Shown here: positions 9,784 through 49,292 of the stretch, in pieces | Position numbering within the stretch: position 1 is the first letter of the stretch | Layout: each line of letters starts with the position of its first letter | NCBI RefSeq assembly: GCF_054482595.1 | Contig: NZ_CM137008.1 | Reading direction: 5' to 3' (one strand) | DNA: 64,000 nt | Notes under the pieces: model-generated | What the model was told of the DNA's origin: nothing | The model's database searches: none | Seen by the model: the letters and a program-made list of their open reading frames with translations, nothing else | Program-made: the position numbers and the translations under genes

Positions 9784-9810
9784 AAGGGGGAAAACCGCTT
9801 CCCCCTTTAA
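9784..9810 (+). terminator. Hairpin downstream of small toxin ORF copy 1
   Basis: aaggggg / ccccctt stem with a 10-nt loop and a short T-run. Confidence 0.4.
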
Positions 9811-9959
9811 TAAAATGATTACTGTTTTTATTAATTCATCATATAACTCATTTTTATTTATAAATTCATCGATTTTATATTCAACGCACCATTTGACCGG
9901 GATGTGAATATTTATGGTGGGCTATTGGCAAAAAATATCTGGAAAGTAGATCGCAGAAA

Positions 9960-9998
9960 ATAAAAAAACCTGCTGGTGAGGCAGGTTCTTTTATTTAC
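9960..9998. terminator. Bidirectional intrinsic-terminator-like hairpin, unit B
   Basis: Same sequence as 9350-9388. Confidence 0.5.
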
Positions 9999-10280
9999 TA
10001 CAGTGACGCTAACTTGCTGATTGTGCAACATTTCGTACCAACGAATAAATTATAACCATATCCACACTCCATTGCAATTCAGTGAGTGAGATTTATAATC
10101 CTGCCCGTTGGGAGGTTGTGCCGGATCGGACCAATTTTAAGTCCTGGCTGCCGGACGGGTGGTGCCGCAGGCGGTGCCCTGATCCGGAGAGCAACGTTTC
10201 GTACCAACATACGTAAACCAGTATCGACAGGCAGTGTAAGGGTAAGGTGCTGGTGTTGCGCTCCTTAATAAGGAGAGCGG

Positions 10281-10370
10281 ATGGACACGCTGACACAAAA
10301 GTTAACCGTGCTCATTGCCGTACTGGAGTTATTAGTGGCTCTGTTACGGTTGATTGATTTGTTGAAGTAA
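10281..10370 (+). CDS. zorO: Small hydrophobic 29-aa protein MDTLTQKLTVLIAVLELLVALLRLIDLLK; candidate type I toxin (ZorO-like)
   Basis: Second copy, differs by one residue (S3T); same RBS-sequestering architecture. Confidence 0.55.
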   Translation: MDTLTQKLTVLIAVLELLVALLRLIDLLK

Positions 10371-10391
10371 CGGGCAAATTGAAACGCATCT

Positions 10392-10418
10392 AAGGGGGAA
10401 TACCGTTCCCCCCTTTAA
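10392..10418 (+). terminator. Hairpin downstream of small toxin ORF copy 2
   Basis: aaggggg / cccccctt stem. Confidence 0.4.
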
Positions 10419-10479
10419 GAAAGCTATACTCGTCATACTTCAAGTTGCATGTGCTGCGACTTTAATTATCTAGAGTATA

Positions 10480-10797
10480 TTATTCTATTTCTTGGTTGAA
10501 TATATTCTGTAGTTTACGATTAAAAATTGCTATTACAGTTTCAGGTGATTCACCTCGTAATTTCCGCTCATCAATACACTCATCTCTTATATAAATCAAC
10601 GCATCATTTATTAGCGGGTCAGCATCTTCTCGATCACGTTGATGAAATGTTGAACGTAGCCGGAATCGCTCCAGTCGATAGACGGAACCTGTAAATAATT
10701 CAGAGCATTTATGGATCTCAAGTCTGAAGGAAAACGGATCTTCAGGTACAGGGACCTCATAATCGTAAATAGCAACCAGCTCTTTTTGCACGATCAT
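10480..10797 (-). CDS. yehK: YehK, small uncharacterized protein (105 aa)
   Basis: Complete ORF, co-directional with the giant paralogues upstream. Confidence 0.7.
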   Translation of the reverse strand: MIVQKELVAIYDYEVPVPEDPFSFRLEIHKCSELFTGSVYRLERFRLRSTFHQRDREDADPLINDALIYIRDECIDERKLRGESPETVIAIFNRKLQNIFNQEIE

Positions 10798-22212: not shown

Positions 22213-24246
22213 TTATTTCACCTGATGACCCGGTTTAGCACCGGCATCCGGGCTTAGCAGGAAAATATCTTTCCCGCCAGGACCGGCAGCCATCACCATG
22301 CCTTCAGAGATACCGAAGCGCATTTTACGTGGTGCCAAGTTAGCCACCATAATGGTGTGACGACCAATCAGTGCCTGCGGATCCGGGTAAGCAGAACGAA
22401 TGCCGGAGAAGACATTGCGTTTTTCACCGCCGAGATCCAGCGTCAGGCGCAGCAGTTTGTCAGAACCTTCAACAAACTCTGCGTTTTCAATCAGCGCCAC
22501 GCGCAGGTCAACTTTAGCGAAGTCGTCAAAGGTGATGGTTTCCTGAATCGGATCATCTGCCAGTGGGCCAGTAACTGGCGCGGCAGCTGCTTTCACTTCT
22601 TCTTTAGACGCTTCCACCAGTGCTTCAACCTGCTTCATATCGATGCGGTTATACAGCGCTTTGAACGGATTCACTTTGTGGCCCAGCAGCGGTTGCTGGA
22701 TACCATCCCAGGTCAGTTCCGTATTTAGGAATGCTTCTGCGCGCTCGGTCAGTTTCGGCAGTACCGGCTTCAGGTAAGTCATCAGCACGCGGAACAGGTT
22801 TATGCCCATCGAGCAAATTGCCTGCAGGTCAGCATCGCGGCCTTCCTGTTTCGCCACCACCCACGGAGCCTGTTCATCGACATAGCGGTTAGCCAGATCA
22901 GCCAGCGCCATAATTTCGCGCACTGCTTTACCAAATTCGCGGCTTTCCCACGCTTCACCAATCACTTCAGCGGCATCAGTGAAGGTTTTGTACAACTGCG
23001 GGTCAGCCAGTTCGCTTGCCAGCACGCCGTCAAAACGCTTATTAATAAAGCCTGCGTTGCGGGAGGCCAGGTTAACCACTTTGTTCACGATATCGGCATT
23101 CACACGCTGAACGAAATCTTCCAGGTTGAGATCGATATCATCAATGCGCGAAGAGAGTTTCGCAGTGTAGTAGTAACGCAGGCTGTCGGCGTCAAAATGA
23201 TTCAGCCAGGTGCTGGCTTTAATAAAGGTGCCGCGAGACTTGGACATCTTCGCACCGTTCACTGTCACATAGCCGTGAACAAACAAGTTGGTCGGCTTGC
23301 GGAAGTTGCTGCCTTCCAGCATTGCAGGCCAGAACAGGCTGTGGAAGTAAACAATATCTTTACCGATGAAGTGGTACAGCTCGGCGGTGGAGTCTTTCTT
23401 CCAGTATTCATCGAAGCTTACGCTGTCGCCGCGCTTATCGCACAGATTCTTGAAAGAACCCATGTAGCCAATCGGTGCGTCCAGCCAGACGTAGAAATAT
23501 TTGCCCGGCGCGTTCGGAATTTCAAAACCGAAGTACGGTGCGTCGCGGGAGATATCCCACTGTTGCAGGCCAGATTCAAACCACTCCTGCATTTTGTTTG
23601 CCACCTGCTCCTGCAACGCACCGCTGCGGGTCCATGCCTGCAACATTTCGCTGAAAGAGGGCAGATCAAAGAAGAAGTGTTCAGAATCACGCATTACCGG
23701 GGTAGCGCCAGAAACCACCGATTTCGGCTCGATCAGTTCAGTCGGGCTGTAGGTCGCGCCGCAGACTTCGCAGTTATCGCCGTATTGATCCGGGGATTTA
23801 CATTTCGGGCAGGTGCCTTTCACAAAACGGTCCGGCAGGAACATGCCTTTTTCCGGATCGTACAGCTGAGAGATGGTGCGGTTTTTAATAAAACCGTTTT
23901 CTTTCAAGCGAGTATAGATAAGCTCAGACAACTGGCGGTTCTCTTCGCTGTGCGTCGAGTGATAGTTGTCATAGCTGATGTTAAAGCCTGCGAAATCAGT
24001 CTGATGCTCCTGACTCATTTCGCCAATCATCTGCTCCGGGGTGATACCAAGCTGCTGAGCTTTCAGCATGATCGGTGTACCGTGGGCATCGTCGGCGCAG
24101 ATGAAGTTGACCTCGTGGCCGCGCATTCGCTGGTAACGGACCCAGACATCAGCCTGGATGTGCTCCAGCATATGGCCGAGGTGGATTGAGCCGTTAGCGT
24201 ACGGCAGTGCGCACGTCACCAGAATTTTCTTCGCGACTTGAGTCAT
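22213..24246 (-). CDS. metG: Methionine--tRNA ligase (677 aa)
   Basis: [29 protein letters not shown] (HIGH-type motif), KMSKS present; ORF trimmed to the ATG at 24244-24246. Confidence 0.95.
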
Positions 24247-24377
24247 AGTAGGCATTACTTCTTAATAGTGAAAAGGGGTTAGATAGTACCAAATGGGAAA
24301 ATGTTAAGTAAGTACTTCTCTATATTCTTCAGGTAAACTATCAGCTGATGGTTTATCTATACAAAAAAGGAGTCGGG

Positions 24378-25487
24378 ATGAACGAACAATCCCAGGCCAA
24401 ATCACCAGAAGCCTTGCGCGCAATGGTCGCCGGGACACTGGCCAATTTTCAGCACCCAACCCTGAAGCATAACCTCACTACGCTGAAAGCGTTGCACCAT
24501 GTCGCCTGGATGGACGACACGTTGCATGTGGAACTGGTTATGCCATTCGTCTGGCATAGCGCGTTTGAAGAGTTAAAAGAGCAATGTAGCGCCGAACTGC
24601 TGCGTATCACCGGGGCGAAAGCTATCGACTGGAAACTGTCGCACAATATCGCCACCTTAAAACGCGTGAAGAATCAGCCGGGTATTAATGGCGTGAAGAA
24701 CATCATTGCGGTCAGTTCCGGTAAAGGCGGCGTGGGTAAATCCTCCACGGCGGTAAACCTGGCGCTGGCACTGGCGGCGGAAGGGGCGAAAGTCGGCATT
24801 CTGGACGCCGATATCTACGGCCCATCAATTCCCACCATGCTGGGCGCAGAAAATCAGCGTCCAACTTCGCCGGACGGTACCCATATGGCACCGATTATGT
24901 CTCATGGCCTGGCAACCAATTCAATTGGTTATCTGGTCACTGACGACAATGCGATGGTGTGGCGTGGACCGATGGCGAGCAAGGCGTTAATGCAGATGTT
25001 GCAGGAAACCTTGTGGCCGGATCTCGACTATCTGGTGCTTGATATGCCGCCAGGCACCGGTGACATTCAATTGACGCTGGCGCAAAACATTCCAGTAACT
25101 GGTGCAGTCGTGGTCACCACCCCGCAGGACATCGCGTTGATCGATGCGAAAAAAGGCATTGTGATGTTCGAGAAAGTCGAGGTTCCGGTGCTCGGTATTG
25201 TCGAGAACATGAGTGTGCATATTTGCAGTAACTGTGGTCACCATGAACCGATTTTCGGTACCGGTGGTGCAGAGAAACTGGCTGAAAAATACCATACACA
25301 GCTGCTGGGGCAGATGCCGTTACACATCTCCTTACGTGAGGATCTCGATAAAGGCACGCCAACGGTTATCAGCCGTCCGGAGAGCGAATTTACCGCTATC
25401 TACCGCCAGCTGGCTGACCGCGTTGCAGCTCAGCTCTACTGGCAGGGTGAAGTCATTCCAGGCGAGATTTCCTTCCGCGCGGTCTAA
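24378..25487 (+). CDS. apbC: Fe-S cluster carrier ATPase ApbC/Mrp (369 aa)
   Basis: P-loop GKGGVGKSST, CxxC motif (CSNCGHHEPIFG); RBS aaggag before the ATG at 24378. Confidence 0.9.
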   Translation: MNEQSQAKSPEALRAMVAGTLANFQHPTLKHNLTTLKALHHVAWMDDTLHVELVMPFVWHSAFEELKEQCSAELLRITGAKAIDWKLSHNIATLKRVKNQPGINGVKNIIAVSSGKGGVGKSSTAVNLALALAAEGAKVGILDADIYGPSIPTMLGAENQRPTSPDGTHMAPIMSHGLATNSIGYLVTDDNAMVWRGPMASKALMQMLQETLWPDLDYLVLDMPPGTGDIQLTLAQNIPVTGAVVVTTPQDIALIDAKKGIVMFEKVEVPVLGIVENMSVHICSNCGHHEPIFGTGGAEKLAEKYHTQLLGQMPLHISLREDLDKGTPTVISRPESEFTAIYRQLADRVAAQLYWQGEVIPGEISFRAV

Positions 25488-25515
25488 CGCCTATTAACCA
25501 TTCTGGTTATTCTTC

Positions 25516-25558
25516 ATACACCGCAGAGATGTTATATTGATGCGGTGTATTTGTTTTT
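25516..25558 (+). terminator. Intrinsic terminator after apbC
   Basis: tacaccgca...tgcggtgta stem followed by tttgttttt. Confidence 0.6.
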
Positions 25559-25748
25559 GCCGCATTAATGAACACTTATTTAATACTGCGAATATTCTGC
25601 GGACCTTCGTCCGAAACTCTACAAAGTCGATTGATCGTACAGGCAATGCTTCATTATCATCCTTCGTGCTGTGTAGTGGATGTACAGCTATAGTTTGTTA
25701 TGCACTCATTCTATCCAGGCATAACCTTTACTACAGGGATAACGTTCA

Positions 25749-26030
25749 ATGAATAAGTATTGGCTGTCAGGAATTATTTTTCTTGCCTATGGATTGGCTT
25801 CTCCCGCGTTCTCTTCAGAGACTGCCACATTAACGATTAATGGCAGGATCAGTCCCCCAACATGCAGTATGGCTATGGTTAATAGTCAACCTCAACAGCA
25901 TTGTGGTCAGTTAACGTATAATGTCGATACCCGTCATCAGGTTTCTTCGCCCGTCAAAGGTGTAACGACAGAAGTGGTTGTTGCAGGTAGTGATAGCAAA
26001 CGTCGAATCGTGTTAAATCGCTACGATTAA
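25749..26030 (+). CDS. yehE: YehE, small secreted protein (93 aa)
   Basis: N-terminal signal peptide (MNKYWLSGIIFLAYGLASPAFS). Confidence 0.75.
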   Translation: MNKYWLSGIIFLAYGLASPAFSSETATLTINGRISPPTCSMAMVNSQPQQHCGQLTYNVDTRHQVSSPVKGVTTEVVVAGSDSKRRIVLNRYD

Positions 26031-26060
26031 TTTGGCAACCTGATTTTAATTGCATTTAGA

Positions 26061-26100
26061 AAGCCGAAATCATTTATATAAATGATTTCGGCTTTTTTAT
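26061..26100 (+). terminator. Intrinsic terminator after yehE
   Basis: 15-bp perfect stem aagccgaaatcattt / aaatgatttcggctt followed by tttttt. Confidence 0.65.
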
Positions 26101-26322
26101 TGATATCAACAATACCATTTACATAAATCTACATTAATTAATAGATGCGATAAATATTTAATGCTCTTAAGCATTTGTTGTAATTATATTGCAATGGTTA
26201 ATTTGTTTTAAATCAATAAAACAATATGTTTACATTGCGGTAACTTTTTTGATGTGAGAAATTTGTTTCCAAGAGATACAGACTCTTAACAACCAAAAAT
26301 AAATTTTATTAAGGAACATATT
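26101..26322 (+). promoter_or_regulatory. AT-rich upstream region of the yehDCBA fimbrial operon (probable silenced promoter)
   Basis: Strongly AT-rich over more than 200 bp compared with the flanking coding sequence; exact promoter elements not assigned. Confidence 0.4.
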
Positions 26323-26865
26323 ATGAAACATTCAATCATTGCTGCCGCTGTCTTTTCTTCTTTTTTTATGAGCGCTGGAGTATTTGCTGCAGACGTTGAT
26401 ACCGGAACATTAACCATTAAAGGAAATATTGCAGAATCTCCGTGTAAATTCGAAGCGGGTGGTGATTCAGTAAGTATTAATATGCCAACTGTACCAACCA
26501 CTGTCTTTGAAGGTAAAGCTAAATATTCTACCTATGATGATGCAGTCGGTGTAACCAGCAGCATGTTAAAAATTAGCTGCCCGAAAGAAGTTGCTGGTGT
26601 AAAACTCTCGTTGATTACCAACGATAAAATAACTGGTAACGATAAGGCGATAGCCAGTAGCAACGATACTGTGGGTTACTATCTCTATTTAGGTGATAAC
26701 AGCGATGTCCTGGATGTTTCTGCACCTTTTAATATTGAGAGTTATAAAACAGCGGAAGGTCAATATGCTATTCCGTTTAAAGCAAAATACCTGAAACTGA
26801 CAGATAACTCAGTGCAATCAGGTGATGTATTATCTTCTCTGGTTATGCGTGTGGCGCAGGATTAA
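26323..26865 (+). CDS. yehD: Fimbrial major subunit YehD (180 aa)
   Basis: Signal peptide; fimbrial subunit-like size and composition (two Cys forming a probable disulfide, Tyr-rich C-terminus); RBS aagga. Confidence 0.85.
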   Translation: MKHSIIAAAVFSSFFMSAGVFAADVDTGTLTIKGNIAESPCKFEAGGDSVSINMPTVPTTVFEGKAKYSTYDDAVGVTSSMLKISCPKEVAGVKLSLITNDKITGNDKAIASSNDTVGYYLYLGDNSDVLDVSAPFNIESYKTAEGQYAIPFKAKYLKLTDNSVQSGDVLSSLVMRVAQD

Positions 26866-26898
26866 TAAATAAAATTGCAAGTTTCTCCAGGTAATAAA

Positions 26899-26927
26899 CA
26901 TGGCCGCTATCCCCATGGCGGCTTTTT
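26899..26927 (+). terminator. Weak hairpin plus T-run between yehD and yehC (candidate attenuator)
   Basis: gccgc / gcggc stem with a 10-nt loop followed by ttttt. Confidence 0.35.
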
Positions 26928-26945
26928 AATTTAAGAGGCATTAAA

Positions 26946-27620
26946 ATGAAAGGATTATCATCTTTACTCATTTTTTCTATGGTCCTTCCTGCACATGCCG
27001 GAATTGTTATCTACGGGACGCGCATTATTTACCCGGCAGAAAATAAAGAAGTGATGGTGCAGTTGATGAACCAGGGAAACCGTTCTTCGCTGCTGCAGGC
27101 GTGGATTGATGATGGCGATACGTCATTACCACCAGAAAAAATTCAGGTTCCTTTCATGTTAACGCCACCAGTGGCAAAAATAGGGGCAAATTCCGGGCAG
27201 CAAGTAAAAATCAAAATTATGCCGAATAAACTGCCCACTAATAAAGAAAGCATTTTTTATCTGAATGTTCTGGATATTCCACCAAATAGTCCAGAACAAG
27301 AAGGTAAGAATGCACTGAAGTTTGCGATGCAAAACAGAATCAAATTGTTTTACCGGCCGGCGGGTATTGCTCCGGTAAATAAAGCGACCTTTAAAAAGTT
27401 ACTGGTAAATCGCAGTGGCAATGGATTGGTGATAAAAAATGACTCAGCTAATTGGGTGACGATTTCGGATGTCAAAGCTAATAATGTCAAAGTCAATTAT
27501 GAAACTATTATGATTGCCCCCTTAGAAAGTCAGAGTGTTAATGTCAAAAGTAATAATGCAAATAACTGGCATCTGACCATTATCGATGACCATGGCAACT
27601 ATATTAGTGACAAAATTTAA
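26946..27620 (+). CDS. yehC: Periplasmic fimbrial chaperone YehC (PapD-like)
   Basis: Signal peptide MKGLSSLLIFSMVLPAHA; position between subunit and usher; RBS aagagg. Confidence 0.8.
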   Translation: MKGLSSLLIFSMVLPAHAGIVIYGTRIIYPAENKEVMVQLMNQGNRSSLLQAWIDDGDTSLPPEKIQVPFMLTPPVAKIGANSGQQVKIKIMPNKLPTNKESIFYLNVLDIPPNSPEQEGKNALKFAMQNRIKLFYRPAGIAPVNKATFKKLLVNRSGNGLVIKNDSANWVTISDVKANNVKVNYETIMIAPLESQSVNVKSNNANNWHLTIIDDHGNYISDKI

Positions 27621-27635
27621 TTGCAGGAACTGCCT

Positions 27636-30116
27636 ATGTTGAGAATGACCCCACTTGCATCAGCAATCGTAGCGTTATTGCTCGGCATTGAAGCTTATGC
27701 AGCTGAAGAAACCTTTGATACCCATTTTATGATAGGTGGAATGAAAGACCAGCAGGTTGCAAATATTCGTCTTGATGATAATCAACCCTTGCCGGGGCAG
27801 TATGACATCGATATTTATGTCAATAAGCAATGGCACGGGAAATATGAGATCATTGTTAAAGACAACCCGCAAGAAACATGTTTATCAAGGGAAATTATCA
27901 AGCGGTTAGGCATTAATAGCGATAACTTCGCCAGCGGTAAGCAATGTTTAACATTTGAGCAACTTGTTCAGGGTGGGAGCTATACCTGGGATATCGGGGT
28001 TTTTCGTCTCGATTTCAGTGTCCCGCAGGCCTGGGTGGAAGAACTGGAAAGTGGCTATGTTCCACCGGAAAACTGGGAGCGGGGTATTAATGCGTTTTAT
28101 ACCTCTTATTATGTGAGTCAGTATTACAGTGACTATAAAGCGTCGGGTAATAGTAAGAGTACATATGTACGTTTTAACAGCGGGTTAAATTTACTGGGGT
28201 GGCAACTGCATTCTGATGCCAGTTTCAGTAAAACAAATAACAATCCAGGGGCGTGGAAAAGCAATACCCTGTATCTGGAACGTGGATTTGCCCAACTTCT
28301 CGGCACGCTTCGCGTGGGTGATATGTACACATCAAGCGATATTTTTGATTCTGTTCGCTTCAGAGGTGTGCGGTTGTTTCGTGATATGCAGATGTTGCCT
28401 AACTCGAAACAAAATTTTACGCCACGGGTGCAGGGGATTGCTCAGAGTAACGCGCTGGTAACTATTGAACAGAACGGTTTTGTGGTTTATCAGAAAGAGG
28501 TTCCCCCTGGCCCGTTTGCAATTACAGATTTGCAGTTGGCCGGTGGTGGAGCAGATCTTGATGTCAGCGTGAAAGAGGCGGACGGTTCGGTAACCACCTA
28601 TCTGGTGCCTTATGCAGCCGTGCCAAATATGCTGCAACCCGGCGTGTCGAAATATGATTTTGCGGCGGGTCGTAGCCATATTGAAGGGGCGAGCAAACAA
28701 AGTGATTTTGTCCAGGCGGGTTATCAGTATGGTTTTAATAACTTATTGACGCTGTATGGTGGCTCGATGGTCGCGAATAATTATTACGCGTTCACTTTGG
28801 GGACTGGCTGGAATACACGCATTGGTGCCATTTCCGTCGATGCCACGAAGTCGCATAGTAAACAAGACAACGGCGATGTGTTTGACGGGCAAAGTTATCA
28901 AATTGCCTACAACAAATTTGTGAGCCAAACGTCGACGCGTTTTGGTCTGGCGGCCTGGCGTTATTCGTCGCGTGACTACCGGACATTTAACGATCACGTT
29001 TGGGCAAACAATAAAGATAATTATCGCCGTGATGAAAACGATGTCTATGACATTGCCGATTATTACCAGAATGATTTTGGTCGCAAAAATAGCTTTTCCG
29101 CCAATATGAGCCAGTCATTGCCAGAAGGTTGGGGTTCTGTGTCATTAAGTACGTTATGGCGAGATTACTGGGGGCGTAGCGGCAGTAGTAAGGATTATCA
29201 GTTGAGTTATTCCAACAACCTGCGACGGATAAGCTATACCCTCGCGGCAAGCCAGGCTTATGACGAGAATCATCATGAAGAGAAACGTTTTAATATTTTT
29301 ATATCGATTCCCTTTGATTGGGGTGATGACGTTTCGACGCCTCGTCGGCAAATATATATGTCTAACTCAACGACGTTTGATGATCAGGGGGTTGCCTCAA
29401 ATAATACGGGATTATCAGGAACAGTAGGGAGTCGGGATCAGTTCAATTATGGTGTCAACCTGAGTCATCAACATCAGGGAAATGAAACGACAGCTGGAGC
29501 GAATTTAACCTGGAACGCGCCGGTGGCAACAGTGAATGGCAGTTATAGTCAGTCGAGTACTTATCGACAGGCTGGAGCCAGTGTTTCAGGGGGCATTGTC
29601 GCCTGGTCGGGTGGCGTTAATCTGGCGAACCGTCTTTCCGAAACGTTTGCTGTGATGAATGCGCCAGGAATTAAAGATGCTTATGTCAATGGGCAAAAAT
29701 ATCGCACAACAAACCGTAATGGAGTGGTGGTATACGACGGAATGACACCTTATCGGGAAAATCACCTGATGCTGGATGTGTCGCAAAGCGATAGCGAAGC
29801 AGAATTACGTGGCAACCGGAAAATTGCCGCCTCTTATCGCGGCGCGGTTGTACTGGTTAATTTTGATACCGATCAGCGCAAGCCCTGGTTTATAAAAGCG
29901 TTAAGAGCGGATGGGCAACCATTAACGTTTGGTTATGAAGTCAATGATATCCATGGTCATAATATTGGCGTTGTCGGCCAGGGAAGTCAGTTATTTATTC
30001 GCACCAATGAAGTACCGCCATCGGTTAATGTAGCAATTGATAAGCAACAAGGACTTTCATGCACAATCACCTTCGGTAAAGAGATTGATGAAAGTAGGAA
30101 TTATATTTGCCAGTAA
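27636..30116 (+). CDS. yehB: Outer-membrane fimbrial usher YehB (826 aa)
   Basis: Large beta-barrel usher-like protein; ORF-track TTG start 27621 trimmed to the ATG at 27636. Confidence 0.85.
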   Translation: MLRMTPLASAIVALLLGIEAYAAEETFDTHFMIGGMKDQQVANIRLDDNQPLPGQYDIDIYVNKQWHGKYEIIVKDNPQETCLSREIIKRLGINSDNFASGKQCLTFEQLVQGGSYTWDIGVFRLDFSVPQAWVEELESGYVPPENWERGINAFYTSYYVSQYYSDYKASGNSKSTYVRFNSGLNLLGWQLHSDASFSKTNNNPGAWKSNTLYLERGFAQLLGTLRVGDMYTSSDIFDSVRFRGVRLFRDMQMLPNSKQNFTPRVQGIAQSNALVTIEQNGFVVYQKEVPPGPFAITDLQLAGGGADLDVSVKEADGSVTTYLVPYAAVPNMLQPGVSKYDFAAGRSHIEGASKQSDFVQAGYQYGFNNLLTLYGGSMVANNYYAFTLGTGWNTRIGAISVDATKSHSKQDNGDVFDGQSYQIAYNKFVSQTSTRFGLAAWRYSSRDYRTFNDHVWANNKDNYRRDENDVYDIADYYQNDFGRKNSFSANMSQSLPEGWGSVSLSTLWRDYWGRSGSSKDYQLSYSNNLRRISYTLAASQAYDENHHEEKRFNIFISIPFDWGDDVSTPRRQIYMSNSTTFDDQGVASNNTGLSGTVGSRDQFNYGVNLSHQHQGNETTAGANLTWNAPVATVNGSYSQSSTYRQAGASVSGGIVAWSGGVNLANRLSETFAVMNAPGIKDAYVNGQKYRTTNRNGVVVYDGMTPYRENHLMLDVSQSDSEAELRGNRKIAASYRGAVVLVNFDTDQRKPWFIKALRADGQPLTFGYEVNDIHGHNIGVVGQGSQLFIRTNEVPPSVNVAIDKQQGLSCTITFGKEIDESRNYICQ

Positions 30117-30129
30117 TAGTCAGGTGGTT

Positions 30130-31164
30130 ATGAATATTCGTATAATGTTATTTATAGTAATGATGATGGTTATGCCTGTGAGTTATGCTGCATGTTATGG
30201 CGAGTTGTCAGCACAGCATAATTTGGTTGTTCAGGGGGATTTTGCGCTAACTCAAAATCAAACAGCAACTCATACATATACTTTTAATGATACTTCTTGC
30301 GTCAGTACTAATACAGTAGCGCAGATAGACCCCTCGGATATTGTGATTGGACTCTATAATGACACCATCAAACTTAAGTTGCATTTTGAATGGGAGAAAA
30401 AAGGTAGCATCACGCTTTCAAATAACCAAACTAGTTTTACGAGTGGATATAATGTCACTGTGACATCGGCAGCGAGCGATGCCATAGTGAATTTGTCTGG
30501 TGGGGGAAGTGGATCTCTCATGATTAACAGTGTCGCGACATTAAGCAGTGCTTCATCATCTACTCGTTTGGCTGCTTTTTTACAATTTGCAGGTTGTTTT
30601 CTAGGCGGCACCTCATGGGATATCTGTGTGCAAAACTATAAAAATGCATTATCAAAAAATGCAGGTGTCTATTCCTTTAATCTGGCATTGTCATATAACC
30701 CGATAACAACGACCTGCAAACCTGATGATTTATTAATTACTTTAGAGAGTATTCCAATTTTACAATTACCAACCACAGGTAACAAAGCAACAATAAATAG
30801 CAAAAAAGGGGATATTATTCTGCGCTGTAAAAATTTATTAGGTCAGCAGAATCAAACATCACGGAAAATGCAGGTGTATTTATCAAGTTCTGACTTGTTA
30901 ACCAACAGCAACACAATACTGAAAGGTGCGGAAGATAATGGCGTAGGATTTATTCTTGAAAGTAATGGTTCGCCAGTCACACTTTTAAATATCACTAACA
31001 GCAGTAAAGGATACACAAATTTAAAAGAAATTGCGGCAAAGTCAAAACTTACAGATACAACGGTTTCAATTCCGATAACAGCCAGTTACTACGTCTACGA
31101 TACAAACAAAGTTAAATCTGGCGCACTGGAGGCAACCGCACTAATCAACGTGAAATACGACTAA
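30130..31164 (+). CDS. yehA: Fimbrial subunit / putative tip adhesin YehA (344 aa)
   Basis: Signal peptide MNIRIMLFIVMMMVMPVSYA; C-terminal fimbrial subunit-like region; ORF trimmed to the ATG at 30130 after the yehB stop. Confidence 0.8.
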   Translation: MNIRIMLFIVMMMVMPVSYAACYGELSAQHNLVVQGDFALTQNQTATHTYTFNDTSCVSTNTVAQIDPSDIVIGLYNDTIKLKLHFEWEKKGSITLSNNQTSFTSGYNVTVTSAASDAIVNLSGGGSGSLMINSVATLSSASSSTRLAAFLQFAGCFLGGTSWDICVQNYKNALSKNAGVYSFNLALSYNPITTTCKPDDLLITLESIPILQLPTTGNKATINSKKGDIILRCKNLLGQQNQTSRKMQVYLSSSDLLTNSNTILKGAEDNGVGFILESNGSPVTLLNITNSSKGYTNLKEIAAKSKLTDTTVSIPITASYYVYDTNKVKSGALEATALINVKYD

Positions 31165-31218
31165 TAACAAGCAAGACGAGCAAGTGGCTAATAATAAAAA
31201 ATAACAAGGTGTCTGCAT

Positions 31219-31247
31219 TGCCCCCTCATGATGAGGGGGCTTTTTTT
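31219..31247 (+). terminator. Intrinsic terminator after yehA
   Basis: gccccctcat / atgagggggc stem followed by ttttttt; the T-run overlaps the rcnB stop codon on the opposite strand. Confidence 0.7.
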
Positions 31248-31584
31248 AGCGATGATAAAAAATCTCACCGTCGTAGGCTTTAATGATTTTACCGTCGGTG
31301 TCGCTGATCAACACGTACGCGCCACCCATATAGGTCCAGTGGGTTCCGGCGTCAGGTGCGGGCAGGTTACGTAACTGCCACTGCTTAATGTTGTACTCAT
31401 CGGTTCGGTACATCTCTGGGACGGTATCACCTGGTTTGAAATGCTTAAAGTCAGCAATGAAACTACTTAACTCATACTTAGAAATTCCCGAGGTATTGGT
31501 CGAACCCGCGGTGGCTGGTGCGGCCCAGGCGGCACTGGTAACCAGCAAAAGCGCACCCAGCAACATCTTATTTTTAATGGTCAT
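31246..31584 (-). CDS. rcnB: RcnB (YohN), periplasmic protein modulating Ni/Co efflux (112 aa)
   Basis: ORF trimmed to MTIKNKMLLGALLLVTSAAWA (signal peptide); lies downstream of rcnA. Confidence 0.8.
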   Translation of the reverse strand: MTIKNKMLLGALLLVTSAAWAAPATAGSTNTSGISKYELSSFIADFKHFKPGDTVPEMYRTDEYNIKQWQLRNLPAPDAGTHWTYMGGAYVLISDTDGKIIKAYDGEIFYHR

Positions 31585-33104: not shown

Positions 33105-33240
33105 TCATCGCAACCAAACGACTCGGGGTGCCCTTCTTTGTGAAGGCTGAGAAATACCCGTATCACCTGATCTGGATAATGCCAGCGTAGGGAAGTCACG
33201 GACCACCAGGTCATTGCTTCTTCACGTTATGGCAGGAGCA
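33105..33240 (+). ncRNA. TPP riboswitch (THI element) in the thiM leader
   Basis: Contains ctcggggtgcccttctttgtgaaggctgagaaatacccgtatcacctgatctggataatgccagcgtagggaa, matching the recalled thiM THI-box aptamer; the platform reaches the SD ggcaggagc. Confidence 0.85.
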
Positions 33241-48560: not shown

Positions 48561-48974
48561 GATCGTATGTGCCTTTATGATTGGTCTGTAGATAGTGTAG
48601 AGCAGAAAACAAAAGGTGGAGTCAGAACAGGATGAAAGTCGGAGGATAAAAAGTCAGTTCAAGTATGGAGGATTCAGTGGTTACCACCAGGAGCTTGCAA
48701 TGGGGACAGCGAATACTAACGGCTGCCACCGATAAATTTCAAAAAAGAGCATATGCCTAATATTCAACCAAACAGTGGCATCTTAAATATACTATTCCAA
48801 ATATATTAAAGCCCCCATGGAGTTACCCTGAAGGGCCTCAATGTCCGTAATTCCTACTTATGTAGGAAATGTTGTACAGAACATTTATTATAATCCTATT
48901 CAATTATAATAATCATGCCATTATTATATTTAAACACTAGAGAGTGTCGTTGGTATTTAATGGGGGAAGGTGAG

Positions 48975-49292
48975 ATGAAAAAGATAGCTGCTATATCATT
49001 AATTAGTATTTTTATTATGTCTGGTTGTGCTGTGCATAATGATGAGACAAGTATCGGTAAATTTGGTCTTGCATATAAAAGTAATATTCAGCGTAAACTC
49101 GATAACCAATACTACACCGAAGCCGAAGCTTCTTTAGCCAGGGGCAGAATATCTGGTGCAGAAAATATAGTAAAAAATGATGCAGCCCATTTCTGTGTTA
49201 CTCAGGGCAAAAAAATGCAGATAGTTGACCTGAAGACAGAAGGTGCAGGATTACATGGCGTCGCTCGTCTGACATTCAAATGTGGAGAGTGA
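48975..49292 (+). CDS. yegR: YegR, small predicted lipoprotein (105 aa)
   Basis: ORF trimmed to MKKIAAISLISIFIMSGCAV (lipobox); RBS ggaagg; lies in an AT-rich context. Confidence 0.7.
   Translation: MKKIAAISLISIFIMSGCAVHNDETSIGKFGLAYKSNIQRKLDNQYYTEAEASLARGRISGAENIVKNDAAHFCVTQGKKMQIVDLKTEGAGLHGVARLTFKCGE

Follow-up and report, generated by a model that had tools for sequence, protein, structure and literature searches.

How is the expression of the yeh fimbrial cluster organised, where do its transcription units begin and end, and what might set the ratio between the major pilin and the proteins that assemble it? Here, we address these questions by a computational analysis of 64,000 nucleotides of E. 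coli chromosome (contig NZ_CM137008.1 of NCBI RefSeq assembly GCF_054482595.1; this whole stretch is called the window, and positions count from its first letter). An earlier note, made from the letters alone, had described a cryptic cluster yehEDCBA with a silenced AT-rich promoter and a GC hairpin behind the pilin gene. Our own results concern gene identities, architecture, base composition, synteny and the presence and conservation of hairpins; H-NS binding and repression, co-transcription from yehD to yehA, CsrA binding, pilus formation and the structure and ligand of the adhesin are taken from the literature.

The cluster is the Yeh pilus locus between apbC and rcnB

We identify the region as the E. 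coli locus for the Yeh pilus, a chaperone-usher pilus of the gamma4 class. The order of this locus in the window is metG-apbC, then yehE, yehD, yehC, yehB and yehA, then rcnB, and it occupies the position between apbC (mrp) and rcnB that marks the Yeh/Stc type. Gene calls combine open reading frames with the PGAP annotation of strain XH990, which is 100% identical to the window:

25749-26030, plus strand: yehE, 93 aa, DUF2574, a secreted small protein (ORF, PGAP, Pfam)
26323-26865, plus strand: yehD, major pilin, 180 aa (ORF, PGAP, Pfam Fimbrial)
26946-27620, plus strand: yehC, periplasmic chaperone, 224 aa (ORF, PGAP, Pfam PapD_N and PapD_C)
27636-30116, plus strand: yehB, outer-membrane usher, 826 aa (PGAP, Pfam PapC_N, Usher and PapC_C)
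30130-31164, plus strand: yehA, two-domain tip adhesin, 344 aa (ORF, PGAP, Pfam, match to 9N4G)
31246-31584, minus strand: rcnB (ORF, PGAP)

YehD has the signal peptide and the Fimbrial domain of a major pilin (PF00419, 31.2 bits against a cut-off of 25.6), YehC is a two-domain PapD-like chaperone (PapD_N, E 3.6e-41; PapD_C, E 3.6e-9), and in YehB the PapC_N, Usher and PapC_C domains all score above cut-off, with NF011763 reaching 1749 bits (cut-off 933). Pfam recognises only the Fimbrial domain of YehA (PF00419, residues 189-344); residues 21-193 match the solved receptor-binding domain of the Yeh adhesin, 9N4G (E 2.4e-79), and the protein joins an N-terminal receptor-binding domain to a C-terminal pilin domain. 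In the Hultgren nomenclature the yehA product is called YehD and the operon yehABCD. YehD, YehC and YehB are 99-100% identical to their K-12 counterparts (YehB 99%), and K-12 YehB belongs to the gamma4 usher clade (PMC7098969, PMC12778044). The subunit-chaperone-usher-adhesin architecture and the gene identities of the earlier note are confirmed by ORFs, PGAP and Pfam, and every feature that it named lies where it had placed it.

The locus is not a phase-variable fimbrial switch, be it of the fimS inversion or of the pap Dam/Lrp type: the cluster contains no recombinase gene, positions 26031-26322 contain no GATC site, and the inverted repeats near the cluster are a terminator and a 22-bp palindrome (see below), not switch borders. 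Positions 25400-31400, scanned against Rfam with a permissive threshold, gave chance-level matches only.

Is the cluster a recently acquired island that is silenced as foreign DNA, as strict xenogeneic silencing would have it? Its low G+C content (41% against 50.5%) and a listed overlap with a predicted genomic island in K-12 (PMC5797941) would fit such an origin. However, the same cluster sits at the metG-apbC/rcnB position in Escherichia, Salmonella and Citrobacter, in agreement with a study that classed Yeh as core-associated and ancestral (PMC3559732), and it is found in 5224 of 5426 complete E. coli genomes (96%); it is neither absent from the orthologous site nor patchy within the species. 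Because the position is shared by the three genera, the locus is ancestral and not recently acquired, and we regard a foreign island as barely credible.

yehE probably forms a separate transcription unit

Two hairpins flank yehE:

25516-25560, plus strand: apbC (mrp) terminator, a 10-bp perfect inverted repeat followed by TTTGTTTTTG, which separates apbC from yehE
26058-26098, plus strand: intrinsic terminator of yehE, an 18-bp stem with a 4-nt loop and T6 (folding)

The yehE hairpin, which the earlier note did not mention, folds with -24.5 kcal/mol (z = -5.4). In 15 of 27 syntenic yehE-yehD spacers, from several genera, this position has a perfect, long stem (12-20 bp), with sequence changes on both arms, and both here and after yehA a stable stem with a U-run is conserved at the gene end. 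yehE is probably a separate transcription unit, a small one that would be ended by its own terminator. Published work describes one transcript from yehD to yehA, with yehD as its first gene, and RT-PCR across the junctions in EHEC detected read-through (PMC11287998). We propose that yehDCBA would form a single operon whose promoter lies inside the 292-bp AT-rich spacer behind yehE. The name yehEDCBA holds for the gene cluster and not for one operon, since yehE has its own conserved terminator and the literature starts the operon at yehD (PMC11287998).

Could yehE nevertheless head one yehEDCBA operon with its promoter in the apbC-yehE spacer, the AT-rich stretch being a mere internal spacer? 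One preprint speaks of a yehEDCBA operon (bioRxiv 10.1101/2024.06.20.599902), yehE was part of the expression construct that produced pili (ECs2914-2918, PMC7098969), and its position is kept in most syntenic loci. We consider this arrangement improbable in view of the 18-bp hairpin with T6 directly 3' of yehE, which recurs as a comparable long stem in several genera, of a promoter-like block between yehE and yehD that is conserved at housekeeping level, and of the operon tables and RT-PCR work that take yehD as the first gene (PMC4448311 listing, PMC11287998, PMC5797941).

As to the protein itself, the first 42 residues of YehE resemble a pilin leader and N-terminal strand, a likeness seen solely by profile-profile comparison: BLASTP of YehE against YehD was not significant, a PDB sequence search gave no matches, and an AlphaFold2 model from a 20-sequence alignment was poor (pLDDT 65, pTM 0.31), with no Foldseek hit in the PDB below E = 0.5.

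The AT-rich spacer contains a deeply conserved block

The control region of yehDCBA contains the following elements:

26031-26322, no strand: AT-rich yehE-yehD spacer, 292 bp, 24% GC
26172-26262, plus strand: 91-bp conserved non-coding block (alignment of syntenic spacers)
26188-26195: ATTGCAAT, within the block
26203-26224: inverted repeat TTGTTTTA-N6-TAAAACAA, a perfect 22-bp palindrome within the block
26228-26244: GTTTACATTGCGGTAAC, within the block
26235-26263, plus strand: putative sigma-70 promoter, -35 TTGCGG (26235-26240), 17-bp spacer, extended -10 TG (26255-26256) and GAAATT (26258-26263) (alignment)
26311-26315, plus strand: yehD Shine-Dalgarno AAGGA (sequence; nearly invariant in the alignment)

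The AT-rich DNA that the earlier note had seen upstream of yehD (26101-26322) is borne out: its GC content is 23.4%, compared with 50.5% on average in the window, only 0.08% of all 222-bp windows are as GC-poor, and the lowest value in the 64 kb is reached at 26043-26264. Runs of at least six A/T occur at 44.5 per kb in the spacer and at 11.2 per kb in the window, and the region has the AT-richness and the A/T tracts of an H-NS-silenced region. Both length and composition are kept among the 27 syntenic loci, with 272-294 bp in 26 of them, 319 bp in the remaining one and 24-32% GC in all. The high-affinity H-NS motif TCGATAAATT was uninformative, with only two matches in the spacer, each with two mismatches.

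For K-12, H-NS binding at the yeh locus is documented by ChIP data cited in PMC5797941, which also reports, as far as it summarises Korea et al. 2010, that H-NS represses yeh. Over-production of SlyA induces yehDCBA 3.6-fold (PMC5797941), and an extended protein-occupancy domain covers the locus (bioRxiv 10.1101/2024.06.20.599902). The 'xenogeneically silenced promoter' of the earlier note stands as far as H-NS silencing of the AT-rich control region is concerned, which is documented for K-12 (PMC5797941); the word xenogeneic does not, the cluster being ancestral by synteny. Two of the three checks that the note had proposed, H-NS dependence and electron microscopy after forced expression, are already published (PMC5797941 for H-NS, PMC7098969 for pili). 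We expect that H-NS would coat and silence the spacer under laboratory conditions, and that expression would be modulated by counter-silencers such as SlyA and, post-transcriptionally, by CsrA at the yehD ribosome-binding site. Indeed, CsrA binds the yehD 5' UTR (PMC11287998), and the GGA of the Shine-Dalgarno sequence is the GGA of the published CsrA site.

Within the spacer, the 91-bp block has a median nucleotide identity of 80% to non-Escherichia loci, compared with 84% for apbC and 57% for yehD. It is kept from E. coli to Salmonella, Citrobacter and Superficieibacter, next to a pilin with about 30-39% protein identity, and a diverged copy lies upstream of candidate Yeh-like paralogous operons; we found no description of it in the literature that we searched. 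From the alignment we infer a yehD promoter at 26235-26263, with transcription starting near 26270: the -35 TTG and the extended -10 TG are invariant in 27 aligned sequences, and the -10 hexamer is poor. A consensus promoter scan of the spacer made no call on the plus strand and gave two matches on the minus strand (26212-26183 and 26109-26082). As a papA-like 5' stabiliser we considered and rejected a stem of 5 bp at 26272-26290, in the presumed leader of yehD, with 85% of positions paired and covariation not beyond that of shuffles.

We tentatively suggest, without holding it to be the likelier case, that the AT-rich spacer is more than passive bait for H-NS and that its 91-bp core serves as operator and promoter for a dedicated, putative trans-acting regulator. 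SlyA is a candidate for this regulator because its minimal consensus TTAN6TAA sits at the centre of the 22-bp palindrome; the window contains 8 copies of the consensus where 13 are expected, and the site at 26208-26219 is not significant alone.

A stem-loop between yehD and yehC is conserved in all syntenic loci

Between pilin and chaperone genes lies one further element:

26902-26933, plus strand: inter-cistronic GC hairpin, 9-bp stem (5 G-C) with loop CCCC (26902-26923), then TTTTTAATTT

It is the GC hairpin with a T-run that had been noted at this junction, 36 nt past the yehD stop and 22 nt ahead of the yehC start. With -13.3 kcal/mol (z = -2.9) it folds better than all of 200 shuffles, and it has the sequence form of an intrinsic terminator, i.e. 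a G+C-rich stem of at least 5 bp, a loop of 3-8 nt and a U-rich tract. A terminator scan of the window was not enriched (7 sites, 7.6 expected); the hairpins after yehD and yehA stand out from chance because they lie at gene ends and are conserved in other genera.

Indeed, a G+C-rich hairpin of 6-13 bp is present in each of the 29 distinct syntenic pilin-chaperone spacers from Escherichia, Salmonella and Citrobacter, with energies from -12.5 to -23.2 kcal/mol, z from -3.2 to -8.3 and at most 3 of 300 shuffles as good, while the stem sequences differ wholly between lineages. Among the Escherichia hairpins, 97% of cells are paired, a value that drops to 15-61% once the partners are slid, and two pairs show compensatory changes on both sides; in E. 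coli the stem is invariant save the outermost pair (G-C or G-U), and the remaining variation is in the loop. A significant hairpin is found at the same place in 20 of 34 more distant chaperone-usher operons, many of them without a T-run, and the position that had been called usual for such an element proves to be so across these operons and all syntenic loci examined.

What does the stem-loop do? Only about a third of the 29 loci have at least 5 T in the next 8 bases (9 of 29 have 6 of 8 T), and neither E. albertii nor the cryptic Escherichia clades have the U-run, which most loci of Citrobacter and Salmonella lack as well. The T-run is largely confined to E. coli proper, and the conserved element, judged by these alignments, is the stem-loop and not an intrinsic terminator; since the U-run is missing in most other lineages, termination would not be the conserved function. 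The tail T4-5 AA T3 behind the hairpin of E. coli proper is as expected of an intrinsic terminator, and in the window a C-to-T change at the stem base lengthens the T-run. Read-through was detected by RT-PCR in EHEC (PMC11287998), and therefore termination at the hairpin can only be partial. Neither the Term-seq supplements, which hold no entries for yeh genes, nor the literature and data that we searched provided 3'-end or 5'-end mapping for the locus.

We infer that the hairpin sets the subunit ratio by either of two routes. In E. coli proper, where the U-run is present, it would end a fraction of transcripts as a leaky intrinsic terminator; in all lineages, it would shield the 3' end of the yehD mRNA from 3'-to-5' exonucleases. 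Either route would leave the mRNA of the major pilin in excess over that of chaperone, usher and adhesin. Termination and 3' stabilisation are not mutually exclusive.

It is possible, though we think it rather unlikely, that the hairpin never terminates: an endonuclease would first cut in the AU-rich spacer, and the hairpin would then only block 3' exonucleases and so stabilise the yehD segment, as in pap and CFA/I. The stem-loop in 29 of 29 loci set against a T-run in about a third of them, the many distant operons that lack a T-run, the RT-PCR read-through and, as far as they are represented by the references of PMC4423207, the precedents for selective RNA processing and stabilisation would all agree with a pure stabiliser. 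Against it speaks the tail of E. coli proper, together with the lengthened run in the window.

Might the hairpin have no role in expression at all, being a neutral palindrome, a remnant of a repeat element or part of the yehC coding sequence? The K-12 annotation does start a 239-aa YehC at an ATG inside the hairpin. The true yehC start, however, is the ATG at 26946, which gives 224 aa: it is preceded by a conserved AAGAGG, the 224-aa form begins with a signal peptide, and PGAP calls it. From the upstream ATG, translation reaches a stop after nine codons in the window and in seven other non-K-12 E. coli alleles examined, and in other Escherichia this ATG is out of frame or absent; the 239-aa form was rejected on these grounds. 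A repeat-element origin is rejected, as the yehD-yehC junction is single-copy in 4904 of 5426 genomes and not a dispersed repeat, and a stable stem that is retained while its sequence turns over completely speaks against neutrality. A hairpin devoid of any such role is, in our judgement, very unlikely, and we retain the hairpin-set subunit ratio.

The operon probably ends at the stop codon of rcnB

The 3' end of the operon meets the convergent rcnB:

31220-31247, plus strand: yehA terminator, 9-bp stem (7 G-C) at 31220-31240 and T7 at 31241-31247, -18.8 kcal/mol
31246-31248, minus strand: rcnB stop codon TAA, read as the complement

The rcnB stop codon overlaps the last two T of the run (31246-31247), just as the earlier note had it for a strong terminator after yehA. 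Of the orthologous loci, 22 extend as far as rcnB, and each has a hairpin beside the rcnB stop codon, mostly with a T-run up to that codon; we propose that the strong hairpin and U7 past yehA would end the operon at this stop codon.

The window carries a minority adhesin allele

One segment of the adhesin gene is diverged from K-12:

30190-30708, plus strand: receptor-binding-domain coding segment of yehA, minority allele (protein comparison)

Compared with K-12/9N4G, the receptor-binding domain of the window's YehA is 74% identical and the pilin domain 96%; the four Cys, S49, W143 and Y150 are kept, and R151K is substituted. The Yeh adhesin has been crystallised and binds pectin, and its prevalence has been given as 'one-half of E. 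coli' (PMC12778044). Since divergent alleles of the receptor-binding domain occur at the same locus, gene searches that use the K-12/UTI89 allele may under-count the adhesin, which may bear on that figure.

DISCUSSION

Taken as a whole, we hold with good confidence a model in which an ancestral Yeh locus comprises a separate yehE, an H-NS-silenced yehDCBA operon, a hairpin that sets the subunit ratio and a terminator at rcnB. The Yeh system itself is already well studied, the earlier description of it is accurate, and the finding repeats known biology with nothing new in kind: H-NS silencing (PMC5797941), CsrA control (PMC11287998), pilus formation (PMC7098969) and a pectin-binding adhesin (PMC12778044) have all been published. 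The label 'cryptic' is dated: in EHEC the native promoter drives yeh expression (PMC11287998), and the adhesin has a known function (PMC12778044).

How does the window compare with related systems? The Yeh operons of K-12, UTI89 and EHEC have the same locus, gene order and flanks. The window differs from K-12 in its hairpin (loop CCCC instead of CCC, stem base T instead of C) and in an adhesin receptor-binding domain that belongs to the minority allele and not to the crystallised K-12 type. The Salmonella stcABCD (Stc) and Citrobacter orthologues share the apbC-rcnB synteny, the yehE homologue upstream, the AT-rich spacer with its 91-bp block, a hairpin past the pilin gene and the terminator abutting rcnB. 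They differ in a major pilin that is only 30-39% identical, in an adhesin that is often unrecognisable by tblastn, and in hairpins whose sequence is unrelated to that of the window and which mostly lack a T-run.

As in pap, CFA/I and daa, a stem-loop in yeh separates the major subunit gene from the assembly genes, and subunit excess would likewise be set at the RNA level. In pap, work by Baga et al. in 1988 reportedly found that papBA is processed and a stable papA mRNA remains, so that subunit excess is set at the RNA level. For pap, CFA/I and daa, differential mRNA decay or processing is described as established in work listed among the references of PMC4423207 and PMC3997798. The pap operon comes with its own pair of regulators and a Dam/Lrp phase switch, whereas the yehE-yehD spacer is free of GATC and the yeh locus encodes no predicted DNA-binding regulator (PMC11287998). 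Phylogroup E E. coli have a sister gamma4 pilus, Yhl (Yeh-like), whose operon likewise comprises four genes in this layout and whose adhesin domain shares the fold (PMC12778044). Yhl is nevertheless a separate locus, not an alternative allele of yeh: the adhesin domains of Yhl and Yeh are 14% identical (PMC12778044), as opposed to 74% for the window allele. Three candidate Yeh-like paralogous loci (L023, L025 and L028), with a diverged copy of the promoter block and a hairpin ahead of the chaperone gene, may be Yhl.

What the present analysis adds is the hairpin in all 29 syntenic loci, the probably separate yehE unit, the ancestral position of the locus, the 91-bp block and the minority adhesin allele. 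Yeh is one of the few pili found in nearly all E. coli, and recent work links it, through pectin binding, to colonisation of the gut and, in EHEC, to the expression of virulence genes; the control of its expression is thus of practical interest. For those who work on Yeh, the stem-loop is the conserved element and the terminator-like T-run an E. coli-specific addition, and a deeply conserved, apparently undissected block lies in the control region. If our suggestion is true, a regulator acting at this 91-bp block would decide when the 'cryptic' gut pilus gets made.

The Yeh locus and its genes

The window comes from an E. coli chromosome. Over 25400-31400 it matches several sequenced strains, XH990 and APEC37 among them, at 100% identity, and of 5426 complete E. 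coli genomes 5224 contain at least 80% of this region. Gene coordinates are those of the PGAP annotation of an identical strain, moved onto the window.

Genes of the region and a probable terminator
22213-24255, minus strand: metG
24378-25487, plus strand: apbC/mrp
25516-25560, just past the apbC stop: probable apbC terminator, a perfect inverted repeat of 10 bp with a T-rich run behind it
25749-26030, plus strand: yehE
26323-26865, plus strand: yehD
26946-27620, plus strand: yehC
27636-30116, plus strand: yehB
30130-31164, plus strand: yehA
31246-31584, minus strand: rcnB

Beyond rcnB follow rcnA, rcnR and thiM, and the gene order is the same in K-12. Upstream of thiM (about 33114-33210), the XH990 annotation carries a TPP riboswitch.

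The earlier note, made from the sequence alone, had read the cluster as subunit, chaperone, usher and adhesin, and this is correct. Pfam domains mark YehD as the major pilin, YehC as a PapD-type chaperone and YehB as a complete usher. The C-terminal half of YehA is a pilin domain, and its N-terminal half (residues 21-193) matches the receptor-binding domain of the crystallised Yeh adhesin, 9N4G (E 2.4e-79); usher and adhesin also score above the curated cut-offs of NCBIfam models. A YehC scan of species-representative genomes returned 80 loci, about 30 of them syntenic between apbC and rcnB in Escherichia, Salmonella and Citrobacter, and a few more clearly of the same operon type at another genome position. 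By this synteny the locus is older than the Escherichia-Salmonella split, and 'xenogeneic', as its promoter had been called, is the wrong word. In one metagenome-assembled Enterobacteriaceae genome (locus L010, 4604-4873), the yehE homologue upstream of the operon is encoded on the other strand, and the flanks lack metG, apbC and rcnB.

A hairpin between pilin and chaperone genes

The G+C-rich hairpin proposed between yehD and yehC is found at 26902-26923, with a 9-bp stem and a CCCC loop, followed by TTTTTAATTT; its folding energy (-13.3 kcal/mol, z = -2.9) was equalled by none of 200 shuffles. A consensus terminator scan of the window gave 7 sites against 7.6 expected, i.e. no overall enrichment, and the case for such hairpin and terminator sites being real is their position and conservation, not scan counts.

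All 29 distinct pilin-chaperone spacers contain a G+C-rich hairpin of 6-13 bp (-12.5 to -23.2 kcal/mol), each more stable than dinucleotide-shuffled versions of the spacer it lies in (z = -3.2 to -8.3, with no more than 3 of 300 as good) and, in 24 of the 29, ending 21-29 nt upstream of the chaperone start codon. The stem sequences are unrelated across lineages, being GGCCGCTAT in E. coli, TGACCGCCAT in E. albertii, ACCGGCAGTA in S. arizonae and TCGGCGGC in several Citrobacter. In the Escherichia alignment 97% of the cells are paired, with compensatory double changes at two pairs, and pairing falls to 15-61% when the partners are slid. Across nine E. coli sequences the stem is invariant except for its outermost pair (G-C or G-U), all remaining variation residing in the loop. 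Taken together, these comparisons show the pattern expected when selection acts on a structure. In operons of this class that are further removed (Serratia, Edwardsiella, Acinetobacter, Gallibacterium, Luteibacter and others), a significant hairpin is present in 20 of 34 measurable spacers, often without T residues. The hairpin has no Rfam match, and an origin from a dispersed repeat was rejected since the yehD-yehC junction is single-copy per genome.

On the simplest view, the conserved role of the hairpin would be that of a 3' protective stem of the major-pilin (yehD) message, to which a leaky intrinsic terminator may be added in E. coli proper; both protection and leaky termination would raise yehD mRNA above yehCBA mRNA. 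We consider a role in differential expression reasonably likely. Baga et al. (1988) reportedly described such control of a fimbrial operon at the mRNA level. The same logic has long been established for fimbrial operons such as pap, CFA/I and daa (references in PMC4423207 and PMC3997798).

Termination and pure stabilisation at the hairpin are two alternatives. The T-run is not conserved: it reads T4-5 AA T3 in E. coli proper and is absent from E. albertii and the cryptic clades as well as from most loci of Salmonella and Citrobacter. Read-through past the hairpin must occur, since RT-PCR across the gene junctions in EHEC connects yehD through to yehA (PMC11287998); published Term-seq supplements yielded no 3'-end data for the yeh locus.

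The hairpin also bears on the start of yehC. In K-12 (L002 7102-7146, corresponding to window 26900-26945), YehC is annotated with 239 aa from an ATG inside the hairpin, in a frame that is open only because the K-12 loop has 3 nt. The frame from this upstream ATG stops after nine codons in the window and in the seven further E. coli alleles that were compared beside K-12, and it differs in other Escherichia. PGAP calls a 224-aa YehC everywhere, and the true start is likely at 26946, giving the 224-aa protein.

Boundaries of the operon

Downstream of yehA, a 9-bp, mostly G-C stem (31220-31240) is followed by T7 at 31241-31247. The rcnB stop codon, read from the opposite strand at 31246-31248, shares the last two T; the earlier note had seen that the T-run is shared. 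On the rcnB strand no U-run lies behind the hairpin, which is therefore a one-way terminator for yehA.

Directly 3' of yehE lies an 18-bp hairpin with T6 (26058-26098; -24.5 kcal/mol, z = -5.4) that the earlier note had overlooked. In a scan that accepted perfect stems only, 15 of the 27 syntenic yehE-yehD spacers, spread over several genera, have one of 12-20 bp here, and in the remaining spacers the alignment suggests imperfect stems. Between loci both arms of the outer stem vary (GCCGAA/TTCGGC, GCCTAA/TTAGGC, CCTCTA/TAGAGG) around a core, ATCATT...AATGAT, that is kept. The designation yehEDCBA thus holds for the genes and not for a single operon, given the terminator after yehE and a literature, both operon tables and experimental papers, in which the operon starts at yehD (PMC4448311, PMC5797941, PMC11287998); yehE is probably a separate unit outside it.

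YehE is a secreted 93-aa protein of family DUF2574, kept at the same locus position. In a profile-profile comparison with hhalign its first 42 residues, covering leader, TATLTINGRV strand and first Cys, align with the N-terminus of the pilin, YehD residues 1-44, at a probability of 96.8% (E 2.7e-10); the remainder of YehE has no match. The C-terminus (...NRYD) is pilin-like, and the protein is half as long as a pilin.

A conserved block in the AT-rich spacer

The AT-rich stretch reported upstream of yehD (26101-26322) was borne out by a composition scan of the 64 kb. Its GC content is 23.4%, and the lowest 222-bp window of all (26043-26264, 22.5%) overlaps it, just 0.08% of windows being equally low; the entire cluster has 41% GC vs 50.5% for the window. 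The next AT-richest spots are 48867-49088 and 9806-10635 (28% and 31-33% GC).

The spacer has internal structure and is not featureless. A non-coding 91-bp block (26172-26262) has a median identity of 80% between E. coli and non-Escherichia loci, about that of the housekeeping gene apbC (84%), the comparable values being 71% for yehB, 66% for yehC, 61% for yehE and 57% for yehD. Up to 9-10 consecutive bases of it are invariant, three-base periodicity is absent, and it holds a perfect palindrome, TTGTTTTA-N6-TAAAACAA, at 26203-26224 as well as GTTTACATTGCGGTAAC at 26228-26244. Diverged copies lie upstream of candidate Yeh-like paralogous operons (L023, L025, L028, L024). The block possibly contains a promoter, with TTGCGG as -35, a 17-bp spacer and an extended -10 (TG + GAAATT), which a consensus promoter scan of the window did not call. 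The minimal SlyA pattern TTAN6TAA fits the palindrome centre and is too common to count as evidence. The lack of GATC in the yehE-yehD spacer (nearest at 25633 and 25847) and of a recombinase gene in the cluster excludes a switch of the pap or fim type.

A minority adhesin allele

Divergence from K-12 is limited to about 30140-30740 (yehA codons about 4-204), with 67-74% nucleotide identity and sharp boundaries to flanks of 96-100%. This segment is the receptor-binding domain, in which 128 of 173 residues (74%) are identical to K-12/9N4G, compared with 145 of 151 in the pilin domain. It is a minority allele: only 403 of 5017 matching genomes carry one at least 95% identical to it, and 4577 one that is 80-90% identical. 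All four cysteines are retained, as are S49, W143 and Y150, and position 151 has K in place of R; in published work R151E increased pectin adherence (PMC12778044). No other parts of the locus differ as much between species as adhesin and pilin. Some strains have a disrupted or enlarged adhesin gene: the yehB-rcnB distance in E. coli E69 (L003, 9168-10910) is 1740 bp vs about 1133 elsewhere, and strain Res13-Sevr-PER07-33 (H25) has an IS3-family transposase inside this gene.

Discussion

The earlier observation is accurate and its interpretation mostly right, for a system that is already well known and whose features are ordinary among chaperone-usher operons. Yeh is a core-associated gamma4 pilus, orthologous to Salmonella Stc and present at the same locus in Citrobacter (PMC3559732). 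The yehDCBA genes are bound in two H-NS ChIP data sets and rise 3.6-fold upon SlyA over-production (PMC5797941); they are reportedly repressed by H-NS and functional from a constitutive promoter, as PMC5797941 cites from Korea et al. 2010. An extended protein-occupancy domain covers the locus (bioRxiv 10.1101/2024.06.20.599902), and Yeh pili were imaged after forced expression (PMC7098969). Two of the three checks proposed earlier are already published, since H-NS repression and imaging after forced expression are in the literature. In EHEC the genes are expressed from the native promoter as one transcript, the yehD leader is bound by CsrA and deletion of the locus changes LEE expression (PMC11287998). 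For the adhesin domain, a crystal structure, pectin binding and a contribution to gut colonisation are published (PMC12778044). The conserved control block is the sole part of the locus that might repay work, with the adhesin allele second.
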